A DNA stretch of 64,000 bases from a bacterium (GCA_037131105.1 JBAXRQ010000001.1:701465-765464), one strand, 5' to 3'. Counted from the stretch's first letter, positions 27,536-61,764 are shown. The notes: generated by a model not told the origin, from the sequence alone. Translations and numbers: made by a program.

Positions 27536-27651
27536 TCTTGGCGGCGACCTACTTTCCCAGGTCCTTGCGGTCCAAGTATCATCGGCGCTGACGGTCTTCG
27601 CTTCCGTGTTCGGAAAGGGAACGGGCGGTACCCCGTCGCACATACCACCAA
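27536..27651 (-). rRNA. rrf: 5S ribosomal RNA
   Basis: The reverse complement reads CTTGGTGGTATGTGCGACGGGGTACCGCCCGTTCCCTTTCCGAACACGGAAG...GGGAAAGTAGGTCGCCGCCAAG, with canonical 5S helices and conserved CCGAAC/GGGAA motifs. Confidence 0.85.
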
Positions 27652-28190
27652 GACAAAGCACTCTTTACTATCCACACAATTGTGCCGATAGTGTCGGGCG
27701 AATAGCCATCCGGACACCGACAAACCAAGCCGAAGCTCGAATTATCGATGCCGGACAGCATCCACCGCAGATTTTGAAGGCGTTCAGCAAAAGCCAAACA
27801 TTGCCATCACGGCCTGAGCCGTGATCTGGCCATCCCTGCAACCAGGGAAGTTAATTCCAGAAATTACCCGTCACCCTGACGACAGGATGCACCTCTTGCG
27901 AGGTATCTCCTGTCACCATAGGAGTAAAAGTATATGATCAATTAGTACTCCACGGCTGAAACTGTTGCCAGTCTTACACCTAGAGCCTATCAAGGTCGTT
28001 ATCTACAACCGATCTAGAAATCTAATCTTGTGGCCGGCTTCCCGCTTATATGCTTTCAGCGGTTATCCGAACCTAACGTAGCTACCCTGCACTGCCGTTG
28101 GTACGACAACAGGCACACCAGAGGTTAGTCCCCCTCGGTCCTCTCGTACTAGAGGGAGGCCCACTCAAATTTCCGCGCCCACAGAAGATT

Positions 28191-28242
<52 letters not shown>

Positions 28243-28255
28243 TGGCGAACAGCCA

Positions 28256-28286
<31 letters not shown>

Positions 28287-28302
28287 CGACGAGCCGACAT
28301 CG

Positions 28303-28646
28303 TACTATTTTCCAGGATTTCGCCTGGCGCAGACTATATCTTGTTCCTACACTTCGATGGTAGGCCTTCATAAGACACCGTACATAAGTGTCTAAGCCAA
28401 TGATCGTAAGTTTTTGCTGTAGGACTCGGCGTGTTAGCTCTCTAAAAGAAGAAAGCTCTGCTCTTTCGAGCAAGTCGTTACGGGGTCATGCCTCTTGCGA
28501 GACAGACTTCCCACGGTATCGCCCTTGTGCCATAGATAGCGTTTTATCCACGTCTATCTTATGGTCAGTCGGGATTCACCGTTATAAGCCGAATTTTTGG
28601 TATAGGATTACTCCTAAAGCACCCCAATGTTAAATTAGGTGCCAAA
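28303..28646 (-). other. ORF-less ~345-nt intervening sequence in 23S between the equivalents of E. coli U2500 and C2501, in the peptidyl-transferase centre; intron or IVS of undetermined class
   Basis: The flanks GGTTTGGCACCT and CGATGTCGGCTC are contiguous in E. coli 23S. The insert begins AAUUUAACAUUGGGG and ends GGAAAAUAGUA, so there is no canonical terminal G by this alignment. The only ORFs (28189-28473, 28388-28633) run into exon sequence or are antisense. Confidence 0.6.
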
Positions 28647-28679
28647 CCGCGCCGTCGCTGTGGACGCTTGGGCGCGATC

Positions 28680-28710
<31 letters not shown>

Positions 28711-29164
28711 ATGATCGACGCGAATCTCACACTAACGCGTCGGTTCACTACTGCCTACTTTCGTATCTGCTCGGATCGTAGTCCTTACAGTCAAGCTAGC
28801 TTCTGCAGTTGCACTTTGAAGCCTGATTTCCATCCAGGCTAAGCTAACCTTTGCACGCCTCCGTTACCATTTAGGAGGCAACCGTCCCAGTTAAACTACC
28901 CATCAGACACTGTCCTCAGGTCATTACCCTAAGTTAGTATACGTCAAATACAAGAGAGGTATTTCACATTGCGTCTCCACCTCACCCGAAGGCAAGGCTT
29001 CAAAGACTCCCTCTTATGCTACGCATGCATACAACATATACAATGCCAAACTATAGTAAAGCTCCACGGGGTCTTTCCGTCTTTCTGTGGGTAAACGGCA
29101 TCTTTACCGCTATTGGAATTTCACCGATGTCCTCGTTGAGACAGTGTTCAAAACCGTTATGCCA

Positions 29165-29206
<42 letters not shown>

Positions 29207-29925
29207 ATAGGACCGTTCATCAATGTTACGCACAATTGCTTGTGGGCCAGTTATTTCTAACTGACACTGCATGTCGCCATGCAGATCGGACTATATCATC
29301 TCAAGCCTGGCTTGAGTTCGGCGTGTAGTCTCTGAGGATTCCAATCGAAACGAATTTAAGATTTCACCCGAAGTAAACTTGCGTTTGCCTCCGGCATTCA
29401 TGGACTCTCTAGCTTCTAATAACCGCTGCAGTCCCGCTTTGGTTAAATGAGTTTTAGAAAACACCATGTCCGCGATAATGCTGAACACTTCAAAGTCTTT
29501 TCGCTTTTTAGTCTTAAGAGAATACGTTTTAAAGAAGGGAATGATGATATCTCTCAGATCTGTAAAATTACAGACTTCGAAATATCCTACTCCGTCCTTG
29601 CGGAAACGAATTGTCCCACATTCCAAAGTCTCTTGCAGCATCCGAAGGATGTTACCGTCCTTTTGGGATATGTTGAATGACAATCCAACTTTCCACCCTA
29701 TTCCATATGACCGTTTGCGAAAGGAAACATTGAAGCTTCCTTCACCATCAGTAAAACCGACAATATACCAAGCCATATCGGCCGATATCTTTGCAAAACG
29801 CTCAATTGGCCTTTCCTGCTGATTGTCTGCACTTAACGCGTTATCACTGTCATCCATAAATGAATGTTAGTAGCGTAAGATACTCAGATGTTCCAGCAAA
29901 TAGCCAAATTTTATAACTACAATGG
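29207..29925 (-). mobile_element. Group I intron in 23S helix 69, after the equivalent of E. coli U1917, carrying a homing-endonuclease gene
   Basis: The 5' exon ends GGCGGCCGTAACTAT (U) and the 3' exon resumes AACGGTCCTATGGTAGCGAAATTCC. The insert is 719 nt, and its last nucleotide is G (…CAUUGAUG), as expected for a group I intron. Confidence 0.75.
29291..29857 (-). CDS. LAGLIDADG homing endonuclease, single-motif type, encoded inside the 23S intron
   Basis: 188 aa with YIVGFTDGEGSF (the LAGLIDADG motif) near the N-terminus. Its size fits homodimeric I-CreI-like enzymes. It is in the same orientation as the rRNA. Confidence 0.85.
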   Translation of the reverse strand: MDDSDNALSADNQQERPIERFAKISADMAWYIVGFTDGEGSFNVSFRKRSYGIGWKVGLSFNISQKDGNILRMLQETLECGTIRFRKDGVGYFEVCNFTDLRDIIIPFFKTYSLKTKKRKDFEVFSIIADMVFSKTHLTKAGLQRLLEARESMNAGGKRKFTSGEILNSFRLESSETTRRTQARLEMI

Positions 29926-31275
29926 TCAGTTCATAGTTACGGCCGCCATTCACCCGGGCTTCGGATCAAGCCTTGATGTTATCTCAGCTCTCCCCTTAAC
30001 CTTCGGGCATTGGGCAGGCATCACCCCCTATACATCCTCTTGCGAGTTAGCAGGGAGCTAAGTTTTTGCTAAACAGTCGTTTGAACTCTTTTACTGTGGA
30101 TCAGCTTGCGCTGATCAGTCCTTATCCCGAAGTTACGGACGTTGTTTTGCCGAGTTCCTTAACGAGGATTCTATCGATCACCTTAGTCTACTCGACTCAC
30201 CCACCTGCGTCGGTTTGCGGTACGGATCTGTGCCTTAAGTCTCGGACCCTTTTCTAGTCACCTTCGCCCCCACTGTGAACATATCCATAGCACACAGTGA
30301 GCTAAAAAATGCGTCAGGCCGGACATACAACACAAAGTTCAGGAATATTAACCTGATGTCCATCGACTTCCCCCTTCGGGTACGCCTTAGGACCGACTAA
30401 CCCAGGGACGATTAGCGTTGCCCTGGAAACCTTGGGTATGCGGTGGGCAGGTTTTTCACCTGCCAAATTCGTTACTCATGCCAACATTCTCACTTCTGTA
30501 CGCTCCACGTCGGTTTCCACCTTCGCTTCACTGCATACAGAACGCTCCTCTACCGACAGTCATTGACGAATCAACAACTGCCCCGCGTCTTCGGCACAAT
30601 GCTTAGCCCCGTTAAATTTTCGGCGCATGACTTCTTAAATAGATCAGTGAGCTGTTACGCACTCTTTAACTGATGGCTGCTTCTAAGCCAACAGACTGAC
30701 TGTCTTGGAAATCACACAACCTTTTCCACTTAGCATTGATTTAGGGGCCTTAGACGGCGATCTGGGTTCTTTCCCTTTTGACTATGAAGCTTAGCCCCCA
30801 CAGTCTGACTCTGTAACTCAAAGCTGGTCAGAATTCGGAGTTTGGTTGGGTGCAAGAGGCGAACCCCCTACGACCCATTCAGTATCTCTACCTCTGCCAG
30901 AAGCATTACAGGCTATACCTAAATATATTTCGAGGAGAACCAGCTATCTCCCGGTTCGATTGCTATTTTAGCTCTTACCACAAGTCATCCCGCAGCTTTG
31001 CAACGCTGCCGAGTTCGGTCCTCCCGCCCCTTTTACGGAGCGTTCAACCTGCTCATGGCAAGCTCACCGGGTTTCGGGTCTAGTGGCACGGACTACATCG
31101 CCCTATTCGGACTCGCTTTCGCTACGCCTCCAGGATAAACCCCTTAGGCTTGCCCGTACCAGCTAACTCGTTGGCGCATTCTACAAAAGGCACGCCGTCA
31201 CCCGTCCGAAGACAGGCTCCGACCTCTTGGAAGCAAACATGGTTTCAGTACTATTTCACTCCCCTCACCGGGGTG

Positions 31276-31312
<37 letters not shown>

Positions 31313-32203
31313 ATCTTGCAATGTATTTAGCCTTGGAGAGTGATCTCCCCAGATTCCCACCGGATTTCACGTGTCCAGTGGTACTCAGGTACCGTATCAA
31401 GGAGTCTAATGTATTTCGCTTACCGGGCTCTCACCGTCTATGGCCGTCCGTTCCAGGCTCATTCAGCTATACAAAAGATTTCTTACTCCTCGGGATATCC
31501 CCATACGGCCCTACAACCCCGCTATGATAAATCATGCGGTTTGGGCTGTTCCGCGTTCGCTCGCCACTACTAACGGAATCTCGTTGATTTCTATTCCTCG
31601 TGGTACTTAGATGTTTCAGTTCCCACGCTTACCATCACTACGGATTCGCACCGTAATGTACACCTTAAAGGTGTGGGTTACCCCATTCGGAAATGTCCGG
31701 ATCAAAGCTCTGTTGCCAGCTCCCCGAACCTTATCGCAGGCTCATACGTCCTTCATCGGCATTGCAAGTCAAGGCATCCACCATGTGCTCGTAACGTACC
31801 TTTCTCCTTGAAACATGTCATTGCTGACACATTTCAGGTGACGGGTAATTTCTAGAATAAACTAGGAATCACTCCGCTACTCTCCACACTTTGCAAAGTG
31901 TGGGGCATGAGTAATTTCTGGAAACACATGCATCTCTGCATGCACCCCCGACATTGCTGCCAGAGGATTTTGCCGTTTTACCTTCAAAATCTGATTGTCA
32001 AAGAAATCGATACTTCCGAACTTGCGTCCGGACAACCAGCTCAGAGTGACTCTGAAACGGCATGTCCGCCTGCAAACAAATAAAAAAGAGCGACGAGGTA
32101 GTTGGTATGTACGTACGTTCGCTCGCGAGAGTGGGCCGTTGCTCACTCGATGTCATGATAGCGCACCTGAACGGTGCCTAGAGCATTTCCTGCGTGCCTA
32201 CTT

Positions 32204-54241: not shown

Positions 54242-54850
54242 TTATTTCTTTCGTAGTCCCAGGAAGCATCCCGCCACCGCTACGATGAGGGCCACCGCTG
54301 CCAAAGCCCGGGAAGCAGAGTCCCGACCGGTAGAAGTCGCACCAGTTACCGGGGTCGGTGTGGCGGCCAGGTCATTTATTATTGTTGTCTCTGAATACGG
54401 GGTCAGACTGTCATCATTGGCCCGTCCAGCTACGGGAGCCTGGTCCCAGGAAGTAATAGTCCCGTCGGAAAAGGTCTGGTAGGCCTTCCAGTTCAAGGCT
54501 CCCTGGGTTCCCGGCACCTGAGCCCTAAAAGTAAAGTCCAGGCGCTGCCCGGCGGGAATGACCCCACCGATCCAACTGATTTCGGTAAGCTTGCCCTTGT
54601 CATCTGCCTTGGTGGCAATATTCCAGCCTAGCTGGACGGTAGGCATGACGTCGGCAAGACCCCCTGGTAGAACCAAGCGCAGGCCAGTCACCGAGACATT
54701 ATCCTTTTCGTTTGGCACGCTGATGCTGAAGGTCTGGGTAGTGGCAACACCAACCTGAGAAGGTGTGATAACGACATGGGCGGAAGCGACACCAGCACTA
54801 AGCATGACAAGACCGAGCGTAGCGACAAAGCCTAATAGTGACTTTTTCAT
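54242..54850 (-). CDS. YcnI-like (DUF1775) copper-binding protein, membrane anchored
   Basis: Start trimmed to MKKSLLGFVATLGLVMLSAGVASA. The mature N-terminus is HVVITP (His1), as in YcnI Cu-binding proteins. It has a C-terminal transmembrane helix. Confidence 0.55.
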   Translation of the reverse strand: MKKSLLGFVATLGLVMLSAGVASAHVVITPSQVGVATTQTFSISVPNEKDNVSVTGLRLVLPGGLADVMPTVQLGWNIATKADDKGKLTEISWIGGVIPAGQRLDFTFRAQVPGTQGALNWKAYQTFSDGTITSWDQAPVAGRANDDSLTPYSETTIINDLAATPTPVTGATSTGRDSASRALAAVALIVAVAGCFLGLRKK

Positions 54851-54860
54851 GACTAAATGA

Positions 54861-55373
54861 TTAATGACGGGATCGTGGCTTTCTGGGCTCATACCTACTC
54901 CAGGCCACATAGCCCACTATAGCTACGAAGATGGCTCCCAACAAGGTCCAGAGCAGAAAGCCTCCCTTATTTGAAGAAGACGTCGTGATACCTCGCTCCA
55001 CCCGGGTCTGCCACTTCAGGTCAAATTTGGAAAAGTCGCCGGCAACATAGGGGAAACCGGACAACTCCACCTGGTAGATACCTGCGGCTGGAAAAGTATA
55101 GGAAACATACGGAGTAGCGGCATTGTCGGTCAGTGGCTGTTGACTTACTACTCTTCCGTCAGACGACAGTATTATCTGACACTGGCAGTTAGCGAGCTGG
55201 AATTTCCCTTTAGTATCCTTCAGATCAAAGAACAGGGTGGCCGACTGGCCGGCGACCGGGGCATCCCCCGGCTCAATATGCAGTACCGCCCCGATAGTTC
55301 CGTCGCGCTCGAGGAAATGGGCCTGGGCGACAGACGGCGCCAAAAACAGCAGGATAATCAACAGGTACTTCAT
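54861..55373 (-). CDS. CopC-like or other His-first cupredoxin-fold periplasmic protein with a C-terminal transmembrane anchor; tentative
   Basis: 170 aa. After signal peptide MKYLLIILLFLAPSVAQA the mature N-terminus is HFLERDG (His1). It has a CQCQ motif and a C-terminal transmembrane helix, and a 4-nt overlap with the upstream gene. Confidence 0.4.
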   Translation of the reverse strand: MKYLLIILLFLAPSVAQAHFLERDGTIGAVLHIEPGDAPVAGQSATLFFDLKDTKGKFQLANCQCQIILSSDGRVVSQQPLTDNAATPYVSYTFPAAGIYQVELSGFPYVAGDFSKFDLKWQTRVERGITTSSSNKGGFLLWTLLGAIFVAIVGYVAWSRYEPRKPRSRH

Positions 55374-56953
55374 TGGACGTTGATGGTGAAGTCGGCAACG
55401 AACAAATGGCCAGCCGGATTGAACTCGGCAAAGAGCCGGTAGGTTCCAGGATGGATGGGCCCGTACAGCCCGAGCGGCAGGAAGGTGACGGTCGGCCCTG
55501 AAAGATCGCTGGCAGCTGGGATGGTCAGGTTATTGGGATGTACATGCAGGTAGTCAAAGCCGTCCTCTCGGATCATCACCAGATGGCCAAACGCCTCTAA
55601 GTAAGGTCTTAGGTCAGTGACCGCCTTCCCGGTGGCAGCGTCCTGGATGGTAAAGGTCAGGGTCTGGCTACCCACTGACAGCTCCGATGCCTTGAGGGGC
55701 GCACTAGTCTGCAGACTCACTTTGTAGTCACCAAAGGTCTTGGTCTGGGTGTTGTCAGGCTTCTGGGCAGGCGCTTCAGACCCCACCGTACCCACCGCCA
55801 AGGTAAAGGCCTGCTGCTGCTCAATGGCACCGAACGGCTGGTAGTTGACGTACAGATGGTAGAGCCCATCGGCCGGCAGGGCGGTGGTCACGACAAAGCT
55901 CCCATTCACAAAGTCCGGATGAATATGACTGAAATAGTCGAGTTTCTCATTGACGATGACCAGGTGCACGTACTGGCTGTAGACTTTCGAATAGCTGCTG
56001 ACCGCATAACCGGAGCTGGCGTCATAGACCTTAAATGCCAGTTGCACCGGTTGGCCTGCCTTCACCACGGCAGGGGCCGAAAAGCTCACCGTATAGCGCT
56101 TGGTCTTATCCCCTCGCAAACCGGCATAGGCAGGACTGTTCAGGTTCACATTTGAACTGAAGCCGAAAGCGGAAGTAGCTGACTGCTGCGCCTGCTGGGC
56201 CAGCTGAATATGGGCGGAGTGGATATTGATACCCAGGCTGGCACTTCCCTCTGGCGCGAGATACTGCGCGCCGAGGCCGACAACTAACGCGACCACTACG
56301 GCAGAAAAGCCGAACCGCGCTACGACCTGATACTTCCGCTCCAACAGCTTATCCACCCGAAGCGCCTCCAAGAACAGCAGGATTGCCAGCAGCACGAAGG
56401 CGACCTTAGCCACGGGCGACGTAGCTAGATCGGCAAAGTCGCTTCCTAGAAGCAAGGCATGCAGGACGAGCAGGACTCCGGCTGCATAGACCAGTCGGTG
56501 CAGTCGCTTCCACCATTTCCCCAGCCGACGGACCATGTAGTCAAACGAGGTAGAGGCCATCATGGCCACTATTACCAGGGCGGTGCCGCTGCAGGTTATG
56601 GCAAACAAATAGCGATTATCCAGGAAGGGAAGGCCGGAAAACCCTCCCAGCTCACCAAAGAATGAGTAGGCAAGATGGAAGCAAGCCAGAATGAACACGG
56701 AGAACCCGGTCGCCCGTCGGGCCTTGGTCACTATCCCCCGCCATGGCAAGGTCGGAAGGGCTTCGTACAACGGGCTAACCAACAGTGAGATATAGAGAAA
56801 GCCGAGCGCCAGAAGCCCAAAATCCTGGGCAAGCAGCGATACCTGGAGCGGCCCCTCAGGCACCTCGCTTCCCACCCGTAGGTAGACCCCGGCGATGACA
56901 AGGCCAGTAAGGCAGAGGACATGGAAGCGAACATTGCGAAGCAAGGCATGCAT
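55370..56953 (-). CDS. Ferric-reductase-like transmembrane heme domain protein (FRD/YedZ-type), fused to two extracytoplasmic repeat domains carrying H-x-H-P motifs
   Basis: 527 aa. The transmembrane region has His pairs with FRD-like spacing (ACFHLAYSFF…LHRLVYAAGVLLVLHALLLG). The C-terminal half has two ~110-aa repeats: DYFSHIHPD…YHLYVNYQPFG and DYLHVHPNN…YRLFAEFNPAG. Confidence 0.5.
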   Translation of the reverse strand: MHALLRNVRFHVLCLTGLVIAGVYLRVGSEVPEGPLQVSLLAQDFGLLALGFLYISLLVSPLYEALPTLPWRGIVTKARRATGFSVFILACFHLAYSFFGELGGFSGLPFLDNRYLFAITCSGTALVIVAMMASTSFDYMVRRLGKWWKRLHRLVYAAGVLLVLHALLLGSDFADLATSPVAKVAFVLLAILLFLEALRVDKLLERKYQVVARFGFSAVVVALVVGLGAQYLAPEGSASLGINIHSAHIQLAQQAQQSATSAFGFSSNVNLNSPAYAGLRGDKTKRYTVSFSAPAVVKAGQPVQLAFKVYDASSGYAVSSYSKVYSQYVHLVIVNEKLDYFSHIHPDFVNGSFVVTTALPADGLYHLYVNYQPFGAIEQQQAFTLAVGTVGSEAPAQKPDNTQTKTFGDYKVSLQTSAPLKASELSVGSQTLTFTIQDAATGKAVTDLRPYLEAFGHLVMIREDGFDYLHVHPNNLTIPAASDLSGPTVTFLPLGLYGPIHPGTYRLFAEFNPAGHLFVADFTINVQ

Positions 56954-56992
56954 GAAGCGAGTATAGCAGGTTAGGCAAACCCGAGCAGAAAC

Positions 56993-57814
56993 TTAGAGGA
57001 AGCGAAAGCTGTCAGCCATGTGCTGGTCATAGGTAGTGCTGCCGTCCGCCCCAGTAAGCACTGCCTCCTGGCCTCTCTCCCAATAAATCACTTCCTGTCG
57101 AGCCGGAGAGTAATTAATGGCATGGTCGGAATCAACATAACACTGGCTCACCTCCTCCGGCTTGCCGTCTCCTACCAGCAATATTGTGAACGCCCCGTTT
57201 TGGGCAGAAGGCTTCTTGGTAAAGTGACAGCCCGTGCCGTACTGCTTCTTAATAAAAGCAGATAACTCCGAATCAGAGGCAACGGGAGCTCTTCCTAGAT
57301 CAAGCAAATGGACGGCATTCGACTTGGCATCCTCAAGGGAAGCCAGCGTAGTGGGCTGCGAGCCGCATTGGCTATCGCCAGCAGACAGAACCGAGTAGTT
57401 GCTGGAGGCCACATAGATCGTTCCCGTTCCCTCAAAAACCTGGAGTGGGGCGGGGCGCTCTCCTGCCAACCAGTAAGCTCCCGACGAACCCTTGAAGCAA
57501 TCAAGGGCCATAGCCTGCTTGGGAAGCTTTACTGAAAACTGCCAGCTCTGATTGGTATACAGATTCCACGTGTCATCCACCGATACAAGGCTACCAGCAG
57601 CCGTTACAGGAAGATGGACGCTGGAAATCGGAGAAGCAGTGGCAGATGCAGACGGCGATACGGTAGTCGTTGCAGATGCCGGTGATGAATGATGCGAACG
57701 ATACAGAAATGCCCCTCCCAGAGACGCGATGACCAAAATGCCGAGACCGACCAGCATATACTGGTCACGGGTAAAGCGGGAAACCGTCTGCGACTTCTTT
57801 TTCTTAGTAGGCAT
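56993..57814 (-). CDS. Hypothetical membrane-anchored Ser/Thr-rich protein
   Basis: 273 aa. After the KKKK N-terminus there is one transmembrane helix (MLVGLGILVIASLGGAFL) and then an extracellular domain with several Cys. Confidence 0.4.
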   Translation of the reverse strand: MPTKKKKSQTVSRFTRDQYMLVGLGILVIASLGGAFLYRSHHSSPASATTTVSPSASATASPISSVHLPVTAAGSLVSVDDTWNLYTNQSWQFSVKLPKQAMALDCFKGSSGAYWLAGERPAPLQVFEGTGTIYVASSNYSVLSAGDSQCGSQPTTLASLEDAKSNAVHLLDLGRAPVASDSELSAFIKKQYGTGCHFTKKPSAQNGAFTILLVGDGKPEEVSQCYVDSDHAINYSPARQEVIYWERGQEAVLTGADGSTTYDQHMADSFRFL

Positions 57815-57834
57815 ACCCCCAGTATAACCTGATT

Positions 57835-58560
57835 CTAGAAACCTGCGAAATGAACGGCCAGGAAAATGACCACGGCACCAGCGACCGTCATAACACTGGT
57901 AATGAACTTTGGGTGATGGTGGTGACTCTCGGGTAGCAGGTCTCCCGCTCCGATATAAAGGAAGAAGCCAGCAAAGAGCGCCAGCAGCAGACCAAGCTCA
58001 GGACCTGGTACGGTAAAGAAGAAGGTGGCCAGCACACCTAGTACCGGCGCCACAGCGTCTATTCCAAGCCAGATCAAGGCGCGACGGTCCCGCCCCTTGT
58101 CCCGCAGAATAACCGTAACGGTGTTAATGCCGTCCGAAAAATCGTGGGCCAGCACCGCCGCTGCCACTACTACGCCCACCGCTGGAGATACCTGGAAGGC
58201 CAGTCCAATGCCGATACCATCCAAAAAACTATGCAATGACAGGCTAGCGGCTCCGAGGATCCCTCGGTGCCCGGTAGTATCGCAGTCATCATCATGCTCG
58301 GTATGTGGATGTAGCAGAATCACCCGGCTTAACAGCATATAGAGAAGAAAGCCTACCGCCGTCACTGCCGTAACCTGACTAAGGTCATAGTGCTTGGTCG
58401 CCAGGTCTATGGACTCGGGCAAGAGGTCAAAAAATGCCACCCCGATGACTGCACCGGCGCTGAAGCCCAGGATGAGATGCAGGCTGTCCCGCTTCCAGAA
58501 GGCAAACAATCCCCCGCAGAGGGTGGCGACCAGAGTGGCAAGAGCTATGAGAATGATCAT
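57835..58560 (-). CDS. zupT: ZIP-family zinc transporter (ZupT-like)
   Basis: 241 aa with 8 transmembrane helices, the ZIP signatures HSFLDGIGIG and HDFSDGINT, and a His-rich loop HHHHPKF. Confidence 0.75.
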   Translation of the reverse strand: MIILIALATLVATLCGGLFAFWKRDSLHLILGFSAGAVIGVAFFDLLPESIDLATKHYDLSQVTAVTAVGFLLYMLLSRVILLHPHTEHDDDCDTTGHRGILGAASLSLHSFLDGIGIGLAFQVSPAVGVVVAAAVLAHDFSDGINTVTVILRDKGRDRRALIWLGIDAVAPVLGVLATFFFTVPGPELGLLLALFAGFFLYIGAGDLLPESHHHHPKFITSVMTVAGAVVIFLAVHFAGF

Positions 58561-58654
58561 CGGTGAAAATAAGTGTTATGGTGAGATACTAGCCCGACCA
58601 GAGATATAGTGCAAGTAATTTGCATTAGTATGCTGTATTTGATAGTCTTAGACC

Positions 58655-59044
58655 ATGAATACGTCCCGTCAGACCAAGGCCCGACAGGCCCTTATCCAGA
58701 TACTGCGTCGCCACGACTCCCCCCTTTCCCTAGCTGAACTATGGGAAGAGCTGCAGCGTACCCTGCCGGCTGTCGCCCATTCCACTGTCTTTCGCCTGAT
58801 TACGCGACTTGAGGAAGAGGGTCAGGTAGTCAGAGTGGACTGGCGTGAACGAGGCAGCCGCTATGAGTGGGCCGGCCTCCCCCACCATCACCACATCGTC
58901 TGCACCGGCTGCGGAGAGATCCGCGATCTGGCCGACTCCGACCTGGATTTCGACAGCGACAGGTTGCGCCGAGCCACCGGCTACGATGTCACTTATCATT
59001 CCATTGAGCTTGAGGGCCTCTGCCCTCGGTGCCAGCCGGCCTAA
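58655..59044 (+). CDS. zur: Fur-family metalloregulator, likely Zur
   Basis: 129 aa with a winged helix plus HHHHIVCTGCGEIRDL…CPRC (Fur-family metal sites). It is divergent from zupT across a 94-bp intergenic region containing TGCAAgtaatTTGCA. Confidence 0.7.
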   Translation: MNTSRQTKARQALIQILRRHDSPLSLAELWEELQRTLPAVAHSTVFRLITRLEEEGQVVRVDWRERGSRYEWAGLPHHHHIVCTGCGEIRDLADSDLDFDSDRLRRATGYDVTYHSIELEGLCPRCQPA

Positions 59045-61192: not shown

Positions 61193-61764
61193 TTCTCCCT
61201 CCTTCTTACCATATGCTTCTGAGGCAGGTAGGCGCCACTTTGGAAGTGGCCGCCCGTAAACTCAGGCCCTTCCACGCTGTCGCAGAAGCCGAAACGCTCA
61301 TAGAAGCGAATGGCACGCTCATTGTATGACGCCACATTAAGGTAGACGGTCTCATAGTCCTCCACCTCTTTCAGCGCCTGAACTATGAGTGCAGCCCCGA
61401 TGCCACAGGAGAAGTACTCTGGCAACACGTACAACGCCCGCAGATAGCCGTAGCCTTCGCACAGCTCCACTCCGAACAGTCCGATTATCTCACCGTTCAG
61501 TTCAGCCACTCCCCGCCGTGAAGCGGGATCCTGTCTGGTCAGGCTCTCAAAACGCCTTTGGGTATTCTCCTCGCCCGCCAGATCCAAGGAAAGAATGTCC
61601 TCCCTAGTAATCTCCATCCCCTCATGGGGATAGGTGGCCAACCATGACTCCTGGAACACTCTACCCATGGCAGTCGCGTCCTCCGGCCGGGCCGGACGGA
61701 TAATCACTCCACGTGCACTCATTTCGCGCCTCCATACTGATAAGGTCCTTTTTGCGCAAAACAA
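61189..61764 (-). CDS. GNAT-family N-acetyltransferase
   Basis: 191 aa with LYVLPEYFSCGIGAALI (motif A). It has a 4-nt overlap with the downstream GNAT gene. Confidence 0.65.
   Translation of the reverse strand: MFCAKRTLSVWRREMSARGVIIRPARPEDATAMGRVFQESWLATYPHEGMEITREDILSLDLAGEENTQRRFESLTRQDPASRRGVAELNGEIIGLFGVELCEGYGYLRALYVLPEYFSCGIGAALIVQALKEVEDYETVYLNVASYNERAIRFYERFGFCDSVEGPEFTGGHFQSGAYLPQKHMVRRREK

Follow-up and report, generated by a model that had tools for sequence, protein, structure and literature searches.

Three adjacent minus-strand genes in a 64,000-nucleotide stretch of bacterial DNA (GCA_037131105.1 JBAXRQ010000001.1:701465-765464; hereafter the window) are proposed to encode a membrane-anchored, extracytoplasmic relay that would capture Cu(II) at the cell surface and reduce it. 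Judged from sequence comparison, this reading has about an even chance of being correct. The copper role, which a preliminary description of the locus had also put forward, is the best-supported reading and rests on the fusions and neighbors that one part of the system, a tandem three-histidine domain, has in other organisms. Gene A (55370..56953; 527 aa) encodes a ferric-reductase-like membrane protein that carries this domain, gene B (54861..55373; 170 aa) a small anchored protein, and gene C (54242..54850; 202 aa) a YcnI-like protein. A and B are given as called open reading frames (ORFs); the ORF of C spans 54242..54910, and its start (MKKS, at 54850) was chosen by fit to the orthologs. 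The stop codon of A and the start codon of B share an ATGA overlap and B and C are spaced by 10 nt, in agreement with the co-directional trio with 4-nt and ~10-nt junctions first described. A convergent gene for a Kup K+ transporter lies downstream of the cluster. Full-length homologs of A, at 43–61% identity, are found in Saccharimonadia, Daviesbacteria, Curtissbacteria and Woykebacteria, which points to a host from the candidate phyla radiation (CPR)/Patescibacteria. All functional claims below are comparative.

To determine the conservation of the cluster, one genome per species was scanned; 58 related loci were returned, mostly from metagenome-assembled genomes, and their ORFs were called and clustered. 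The neighborhood counts refer to the 42 loci in which A is full-length and ≥2.5 kb of sequence follows it; these represent 44 A proteins that are non-redundant at <70% identity. B is the gene next to A in 34/42 loci, C lies on the same strand within four genes of A in 35/42, and both statements are true for 31/42. These counts are lower bounds, because ORF calling missed B in some loci that have it (for example L003). The A-B-C arrangement, described beforehand for the window, therefore recurs in most of the 42 Patescibacteria loci; its gene order is conserved beyond chance.

Membrane core and ectodomains of protein A

The membrane domain of A (residues 1–232; 56258..56953, minus strand) contains seven transmembrane (TM) helices, the first six of which form a ferric reductase domain (FRD) core of the YedZ/MsrQ/STEAP type. 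Pfam Ferric_reduct (PF01794) matches residues 45–163 with 34.4 bits against a cut-off of 28 (E 2.6e-8), and the same family is precomputed for most of the 120 listed A homologs. NCBIfam MsrQ (NF003831) aligns to residues 7–169 with 53.7 bits against a cut-off of 130 (E 1.9e-14). Among 45 homologs, H93 and H165 are invariant and R79, R80, S136, W148 and H152 are conserved in ≥90%, which gives a signature of R79/R80...H93 on TM3 and W148, H152...H165 on TM5. H93 and H165 align with H91 and H164 of MsrQ through the NCBIfam match. A 2025 study (PMC12525009) assigned a single outer heme, at H91/H164, to the MsrQ-type group, with a flavin pocket lined by R77, R78, W147 and H151 and electrons supplied by the cytosolic reductase Fre; a study of the FRD superfamily (PMC3591440) defined the YedZ/STEAP group by an Arg that replaces the first heme His of TM3 and leaves three His. 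As the residues of A match the MsrQ/STEAP pattern one for one, A is predicted to hold one heme b and a flavin, with H93 and H165 as the predicted outer-heme ligands and R79, R80, S136, W148 and H152 as the predicted equivalents of the flavin pocket.

The preliminary description had called this domain FRD/YedZ-like and bis-heme. The family assignment stands on the Pfam match above cut-off, and the second heme does not, since the first heme position of TM3 is occupied by Arg (R79/R80). Canonical bis-heme FRDs of the NOX/FRE type carry four heme His, two on TM3 (~14 residues apart) and two on TM5 (13 apart); only H93, H152 and H165 are conserved in A. A was also rejected as an MsrQ proper. In common with MsrQ and STEAP, A has a six-TM core in which Arg stands where the inner His of TM3 would be, and it keeps the outer His pair and counterparts of R77/R78/W147/H151. 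It differs in its seventh helix and two three-His ectodomains, and in being without an MsrP partner or a fused NADPH domain. MsrQ is the best NCBIfam match of the membrane domain; however, the score falls below the cut-off, no MsrP-like molybdoenzyme is present among the recurrent neighbors in the 42 loci, and the extra domains of A are absent from MsrQ. A true MsrPQ-type repair of methionine sulfoxide is accordingly very improbable.

Basic loops (residues 71–80, 135–153 and 209–215) alternate with acidic loops (31–37 and 170–179), which suggests an N-in topology in which the seventh helix would place the remainder of A outside the membrane. The AlphaFold2 (AF2) model of A, with a mean predicted local distance difference test score (pLDDT) of 84.5, consists of seven TM helices and two beta domains. 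A search of PDB sequences with the membrane domain returned nothing real; a match to myomaker (E 0.045) was judged spurious.

The two beta domains, delimited by the AF2 strands, are immunoglobulin (Ig)-like. Domain 1 (residues 285–390; 55784..56101, minus strand) carries the triad H330, H343 and H345-P346 in the motif HIHPD, and domain 2 (residues 404–527; 55373..55744, minus strand) the triad H457, H470 and H472-P473 in HVHPN. The duplicated H-x-H-P ectodomains of the preliminary description (H343/H345 and H470/H472) are thus present, and both belong to a longer pattern, H-x12-H-x-H-P, that is invariant in A homologs. Searched exhaustively with HMMER, the tandem domain (A residues 280–527) yielded 3,028 cluster representatives at E ≤ 1e-3. 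The six His are unchanged in relatives with 31–37% identity to the window sequence, and some members have His- or Met-rich loop insertions. Two facing pseudo-repeats with six invariant His could form a binuclear site.

No Pfam model covers the tandem domain, and its profile has no sequence relative in the PDB, where a ubiquitin match was spurious. The ectodomains had been suggested to be YtkA-like. YtkA (PF13115) matches A residues 409–449 with only 15.1 bits against 25.9 (E 0.038), over the first 39 model positions, and the suggestion was not sustained: the relatives P0359 and P0383 do have strong YtkA hits, but these cover another domain, at the N-terminus. The ectodomains and the YtkA/CtaK family share a beta-sandwich framework of P-x-AG...F-x-x-D followed by FP-x-G-x-Y, and the tandem domain co-occurs with true YtkA domains in one polypeptide. 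The metal motif differs, however, being a His hairpin (H-x12-H-x-H-P) in A and a Met/His loop in the YtkA domain of P0359.

The tandem domain is repeatedly tied to copper and heavy-metal genes. Among 50 proteins of other architectures that contain it, 15 carry an HMBD, five a C-terminal cupredoxin, two a PKD domain and some a YtkA domain. In Bacteroidota it occurs in lipoproteins with HMBD, whose operons include a CusB-type adaptor and a resistance-nodulation-division (RND) pump. RND pumps with CusB/CzcB-type adaptors adjoin the domain in L059–L064 and L067, a tandem-domain gene directly follows CsoR-CopZ-CopA in L065, and one further contig places the domain beside an OEP/ACR_tran/CzcB set. 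In soil metagenomes, scanned with the closer homolog set A6, HMBD is found in 39/42 tandem-domain host proteins. A CxxCH protein is encoded by the following gene in 21/26 loci with enough sequence, and in L069 and L071 it is fused to the tandem-domain protein. This neighbor has 385 aa and keeps the motif in 28/28 members (L111 and other soil loci, L069–L148); a search of PDB sequences with it gave nothing real. A ~640-aa unannotated protein is often encoded upstream of the HMBD and tandem three-His gene (15 loci). The tandem domain is therefore tied to a heme protein in two unrelated contexts, a heme-b FRD in CPR and a heme c type in soil bacteria, and this is the chief argument for regarding its metal site as a redox partner of the heme.

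Outside CPR, these contexts are mostly of the resistance type (CsoR-CopZ-CopA, or RND pumps with CusB/CzcB-type adaptors). They would also fit a role in copper or heavy-metal tolerance, in which the ectodomains and small proteins sequester metal and A only tunes its redox state for export or storage. We consider such a role quite unlikely. Reduction of extracellular Cu(II) to Cu(I) raises toxicity, and known copper tolerance systems work in the opposite direction, oxidizing Cu(I) with CueO/PcoA-type oxidases. Moreover, an exporter is not conserved in the CPR cluster, and YcnI, the relative of C, supports growth under copper limitation.

Proteins with a predicted N-terminal histidine

Protein C starts with a predicted signal peptide (residues 1–24). 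A DUF1775/YcnI domain follows from His25, and a linker rich in Thr and Pro connects it to a C-terminal TM anchor, after which comes RKK. Pfam DUF1775 (PF07987) matches with 67.4 bits against 25 (E 2.2e-18). In a phmmer comparison, C aligns with B. subtilis YcnI (7ME6/7MEK) at E 3.3e-11 and His25 falls on mature residue 1. In the YcnI paper, the Cu(II) ligands are Glu50 and two groups of His27, its amino terminus and its N-delta, and Trp137 packs against the metal. H25, E48 and W135 of C align on His27, Glu50 and Trp137 and are invariant in 45/45 C orthologs from FRD-linked loci. C is, by these sequence matches, a genuine YcnI/DUF1775 member with the Cu(II) ligands retained, as the preliminary description had proposed.

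Protein B contains a predicted signal peptide (residues 1–18), a beta-sandwich and a C-terminal TM anchor (residues 138–161). The predicted mature His1 (H19), G28, H32, P35, D37, P39 and C63-x-C65 are invariant. Neither Pfam nor NCBIfam gives a hit, and the CopC hidden Markov model (PF04234) matches none of B and its 52 family members at E ≤ 0.1. B had been introduced as CopC-like; by sequence it is instead a separate unannotated family. A profile search found 588 homologs in CPR and filamentous cyanobacteria, compared with only three from a single-sequence search, and these are unannotated except for one 'FixH family' label. The B-family profile has no hits among PDB sequences. In the AF2 model of B (pLDDT 88.5), a beta-sandwich is followed by the TM anchor. 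A histidine brace of the two-His type, as in LPMO, CopC and PmoB, pairs an N-terminal His with a second His that completes a T-shaped Cu coordination; in B, H19 and H32 flank the predicted first beta-hairpin (strands 21–24 and 27–34) and might thereby be opposed. Foldseek gave this model, as its top specific matches, PmoD (E 1.4e-4), CrdA (E 4e-3; target-normalized TM-score 0.65) and FetP (E 5e-3). These are small Cu-binding sandwiches and are counted for the copper reading.

B resembles CopC in having a predicted mature N-terminal His on a small beta-sandwich and possibly separate sites for Cu(II) (His) and Cu(I) (CxC); two such sites would parallel the redox switch of CopC that PMC8424229 cites. 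It differs in that its second His lies 13 residues after His1 rather than near the C-terminus, and in its CxC motif and C-terminal anchor. By this analogy, B may plausibly work like CopC, binding Cu(II) through His and Cu(I) through thiols at two distinct sites. B and the A ectodomains share an H-x12-H-x-[H/E]-P spacing. Homology between them is not claimed, since hhalign gave a probability of 4.5% (E 0.009) and aligned only the sandwich framework.

The B family is located beside an FRD in every locus examined, in CPR and cyanobacteria. In cyanobacteria, B comes immediately after a DsbD_2+Ferric_reduct fusion gene in 3/3 genomes examined, which shows that the partnership of B with an FRD spans two phyla. 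The FRD of the fusion aligns to A residues 77–194 with 32–33% identity (E ~1e-12) and the RR..H / W..H..H pattern. These two-gene units of Nostocales (L005, 4773–6678; L006, 4696–6597; L066, 3767–5642), in which the genes sometimes overlap, appear uncharacterized; the DsbD_2 part carries HCxxMCGP and PCG motifs. In ~20 of the related loci, B is followed by, or fused to, a member of a family of small membrane proteins in which H-[PSA]-C-C is invariant and R-S-P-P forms a C-terminal motif (separate in L001, 8180–8638; fused in L003, 7565–8398). The family has no Pfam match and may be a Cu(I)-handling membrane component.

Both B and C have His at the predicted mature N-terminus, as first described. 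The cleavage contexts are ...SVAQA|HFLERDG in B and ...GVASA|HVVITP in C, where a hydrophobic core precedes A-S-A|H. The residue before the invariant His is Ala in 43/44 B orthologs and 45/45 C orthologs. The same Ala occurs in 30/32 members of a third family, a PKD-like protein of ~290 aa that is adjacent to A in 25/42 loci. In all three families the -3 residue is mostly V, A or T and the core upstream is uncharged. By the -3/-1 rule, the conserved -1 Ala and small -3 residues suggest that signal peptidase I would cleave here and expose His1. The PKD-like proteins are predicted to lose a signal peptide and to begin with His when mature (A|H-x-x-G-x-P-F; for example L003, 5123–6004, and L001, 9497–11385), and in P0332 (809 aa) one is fused to the N-terminus of an A-type protein. 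Sequence features thus make the PKD-like protein a putative third His1 family of the A-B-C system. A tblastn search of the 64-kb window with the relatives' sequences gave only one weak match for it (E 8e-4; 61219–61461).

The company of three mature-His1 families (B, C and, in relatives, the PKD-like protein) also agrees with a role for A in supplying electrons to surface redox enzymes. A would then feed copper centers in its own ectodomains and/or in the His1 proteins, much as MsrQ feeds MsrP, for activities such as reduction of O2 or reactive oxygen species (ROS) or oxidative attack on polymers. MsrQ-type FRDs are known donors to extracytoplasmic enzymes, P0332 joins a PKD-like His1 protein to A, the six invariant His of the ectodomains could form a binuclear site, and NiSOD and DsbA-like genes are found near the cluster in a few loci. 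However, in its published description YcnI traffics Cu(II), which it binds with a mono-His brace, and is not an enzyme, the tandem domain occurs in HMBD lipoproteins of metal-efflux operons, where catalysis is less likely, and no substrate-related genes are conserved in the cluster. We regard this role as unlikely. A narrower form, in which A is the membrane reductase for N-terminal-His surface copper enzymes (B, the PKD-like His1 protein and perhaps its own six-His binuclear site), is a long shot. If true, it would provide a bacterial counterpart of the pairing between reductases and lytic polysaccharide monooxygenases, and would imply that episymbiotic CPR bacteria use the system for surface oxidative chemistry or O2/ROS scavenging rather than for copper nutrition.

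Proposed copper relay and its weighing

For the capture and reduction of copper by A-B-C, the following path is envisaged. Electrons from cytosolic NAD(P)H would pass through a Fre-like flavin reductase to the flavin in the inner pocket of A, then to its single outer heme b (H93/H165), and from there to the metal ion held by the three-His ectodomains. C, and probably B, would gather surface Cu(II) through their N-terminal His sites and pass it to A. The Cu(I) so formed would be taken over by the CxC of B, a thiol site, from which surface cuproproteins or an importer would receive it. Candidate importers would be a ZIP transporter in the window, the H-[PSA]-C-C membrane protein in many relatives and the fused DsbD_2 in cyanobacteria. 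We infer the copper specificity, the binding of heme and flavin, the signal-peptide cleavage and the fate of Cu(I) by comparison. A candidate donor is encoded in one lineage, L001/L002, where the gene immediately before A specifies an FNR-like protein of 230 aa with an NAD_binding_1 match (L001, 5304–5996). This protein resembles Fre in size and family and is, by that analogy, a plausible Fre-type electron donor; its position beside A matches the MsrQ-Fre pairing of PMC12525009. Neither this gene nor the H-[PSA]-C-C protein gene was found in the 64-kb window by tblastn with the relatives' sequences.

Several known systems share parts of this scheme. C has the fold family, signal peptide, N-terminal His, Glu and Trp Cu(II) ligands and C-terminal anchor of YcnI, so that the analogy to B. 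subtilis ycnKJI drawn in the preliminary description holds for this component. It holds for no other: YcnJ (CopC-CopD-YtkA) and YcnK are absent from the cluster and from its recurrent neighbors, and the membrane partner is an FRD electron carrier, whereas that of Bacillus is a CopD channel. The lack of CopD in the cluster, also noted at the outset, was borne out. Like the Fre1/FRO/STEAP-Ctr1 systems, A is proposed to use a heme FRD to reduce surface Cu(II) before uptake, but A-B-C is bacterial, has a split electron donor and dedicated His1 capture proteins, and is without a Ctr-type channel. CcoG, too, is a membrane protein, and reduction of Cu(II) to supply cuproproteins has been proposed or shown for it; it uses two [4Fe-4S] clusters instead of an FRD and has no sequence relationship to A. 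The flavinylation-associated MsrQ-like systems (Meheust et al., 2021; PMC8238504) also use PF01794 as a conduit to extracytosolic acceptors. A-B-C differs from them in having no ApbE or FMN (flavin mononucleotide)-binding protein and in its other partner proteins, and those systems are under-represented in CPR and cyanobacteria (PMC8238504).

How the Cu(II) captured by YcnI- and CopC-type proteins is reduced is an open question in bacterial copper biology. A 2026 study of B. subtilis reported no reductase associated with YcnJ and found that YcnI supports growth in copper limitation. In a 2020 review, CcoG was the one bacterial enzyme listed as a specific cupric reductase; in eukaryotes the task falls to heme reductases at the cell surface. 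The literature searched contained no paper that links FRD proteins with YcnI/DUF1775, names a reductase for the YcnI/YcnJ route or describes the B or tandem-domain families. MsrQ-like modules with other partners are already known. A-B-C, a conserved operon that joins a STEAP/MsrQ-type core to a YcnI protein, offers a concrete and testable reductase candidate. Two widespread unannotated families come to light with it, the tandem three-His domain (>3,000 cluster representatives) and the B family, and the cluster bears on how minimal CPR cells, which are without most redox machinery, handle redox-active metals.

A number of points weigh against copper capture and reduction. The metal assignment is drawn from association, and FRD and STEAP enzymes reduce Fe(III) too. 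CPR bacteria usually have neither heme biosynthesis nor respiratory chains, which makes both the heme supply and the demand for copper questionable. Near the cluster, the window contains no CopA, CopZ, CopD or cupredoxin gene and no CsoR or CopY; the only adjacent regulator is a Fur-family protein, encoded on the plus strand (58655..59044; Pfam FUR E 4.6e-22). Divergent from it and co-directional with the cluster is the gene of a ZIP-family (ZupT-like) divalent-metal transporter (57835..58560, minus strand; Pfam Zip E 2.8e-20, NCBIfam below cut-off), and this pair suggests a role with Zn or Fe, not with Cu. The cluster has no conserved importer, and the copper-linked contexts of the tandem domain elsewhere are mostly loci for efflux or resistance, not uptake. 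The tandem domain and B are without characterized relatives. Foldseek of the full-length A model against the PDB returned generic tandem Ig/FN3 folds only, the matches of B are weak (E ~1e-4 to 5e-3, TM 0.4–0.65), and the domain packing in the A model has a predicted TM-score (pTM) of 0.50.

The ZIP transporter may be the exit route for the reduced metal, or an unrelated Zn/Fe uptake gene. It is also the basis for an assimilatory ferric reductase, in which A would reduce Fe(III) held on the His-rich domains or small proteins and Fe(II) would enter through ZIP under Fur-family control. The FRD family name and the STEAP/FRE precedent agree with such a function, an assimilatory role in iron reduction has been put forward before for MsrQ-like proteins beside VIT1 (PMC8238504), and FetP, one of the fold matches of B, belongs to an iron-uptake system. 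The ZIP gene is directly upstream of A in five loci, with a Fur-like gene alongside in several. However, these five are 5/44 non-redundant loci, which leaves ZIP outside the conserved core. The conserved partner C keeps every Cu(II) ligand of YcnI, and the fusions and neighbors of the tandem domain elsewhere are copper or heavy-metal modules, not iron modules. The Fur-family protein reaches the cut-off of no NCBIfam subtype model, and with its subtype not assignable, the ZIP and Fur-family pair could equally represent Zur with Zn uptake. We thus hold ferric reduction to be an improbable explanation, and copper capture and reduction by A-B-C remains the reading that we prefer.

Upstream region and other features

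Between A and the ZIP gene, at a distance of 39 nt from A, a 273-aa protein is encoded on the minus strand (56993..57814). Apart from an N-terminal TM anchor the protein is extracytoplasmic, and it matches no family. This gene was a singleton in a clustering of 65 loci, with no relatives there, and is probably not a member of the system. TATACT elements, which are -10-like, occur within about 15 nt of the start codons of A and of the 273-aa gene (56960–56975 and 57818–57830, minus strand) and suggest short-leader or internal promoters. The one before A is 7 nt from the start codon, from which one might speculate that A has its own promoter.

A 7-1-7 inverted repeat, TGCAAGTAATTTGCA, lies between the ZIP and fur genes (58610..58624). 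A repeat search of the regulatory gaps gave no inverted repeat; the palindrome was spotted by eye and then checked. It has one match in the window, compared with 0.11 expected by chance. Similar sequences are present upstream of fur-like genes in L043 (TGCAAGTTAGTCGCA) and L023 (TTGCAATTGGCTTGCGA). On its sequence, TGCAAGTAATTTGCA is a candidate for a non-canonical Fur-family operator in CPR bacteria.

All remaining neighbors of A in the related loci are rare (≤6/44 non-redundant loci). Cupredoxin genes, which count toward the copper reading, are near the cluster in 5/44, and NiSOD and DsbA-like genes in 4/44 each. The adjacency of NiSOD/SodX seemed frequent at first (8–9 loci), but it shrinks to 3–4/44 non-redundant loci and was treated as coincidental. 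In 6/44 loci a protein of 91–98 aa that starts with MC[YF]NCGC is encoded just upstream of A or nearby (for example L001, 5023–5298); it appears cytosolic and may bind metal, and Pfam gives no match. Also recurrent near the cluster (L001, 4481–5014; L003, 9185–10006) are membrane-anchored proteins in which H-x-H is repeated (HYHA..., VHWHA..., HEH); they match no Pfam family and are accompanied by DsbA-like thioredoxins. L003 has, in addition, an SfLAP-family membrane protein near them.

In the 64-kb window, no 16S rRNA or tRNA genes were found. A 5S rRNA gene is located at 27536–27652. The 23S rRNA gene (27922–31806, minus strand) spans 3,885 nt compared with a 2,925-nt model, and it contains an ORF of 188 aa (29291–29857) with the LAGLIDADG-type motif GFTDGEGSF. 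The excess length together with this ORF points to an intron with a homing endonuclease.

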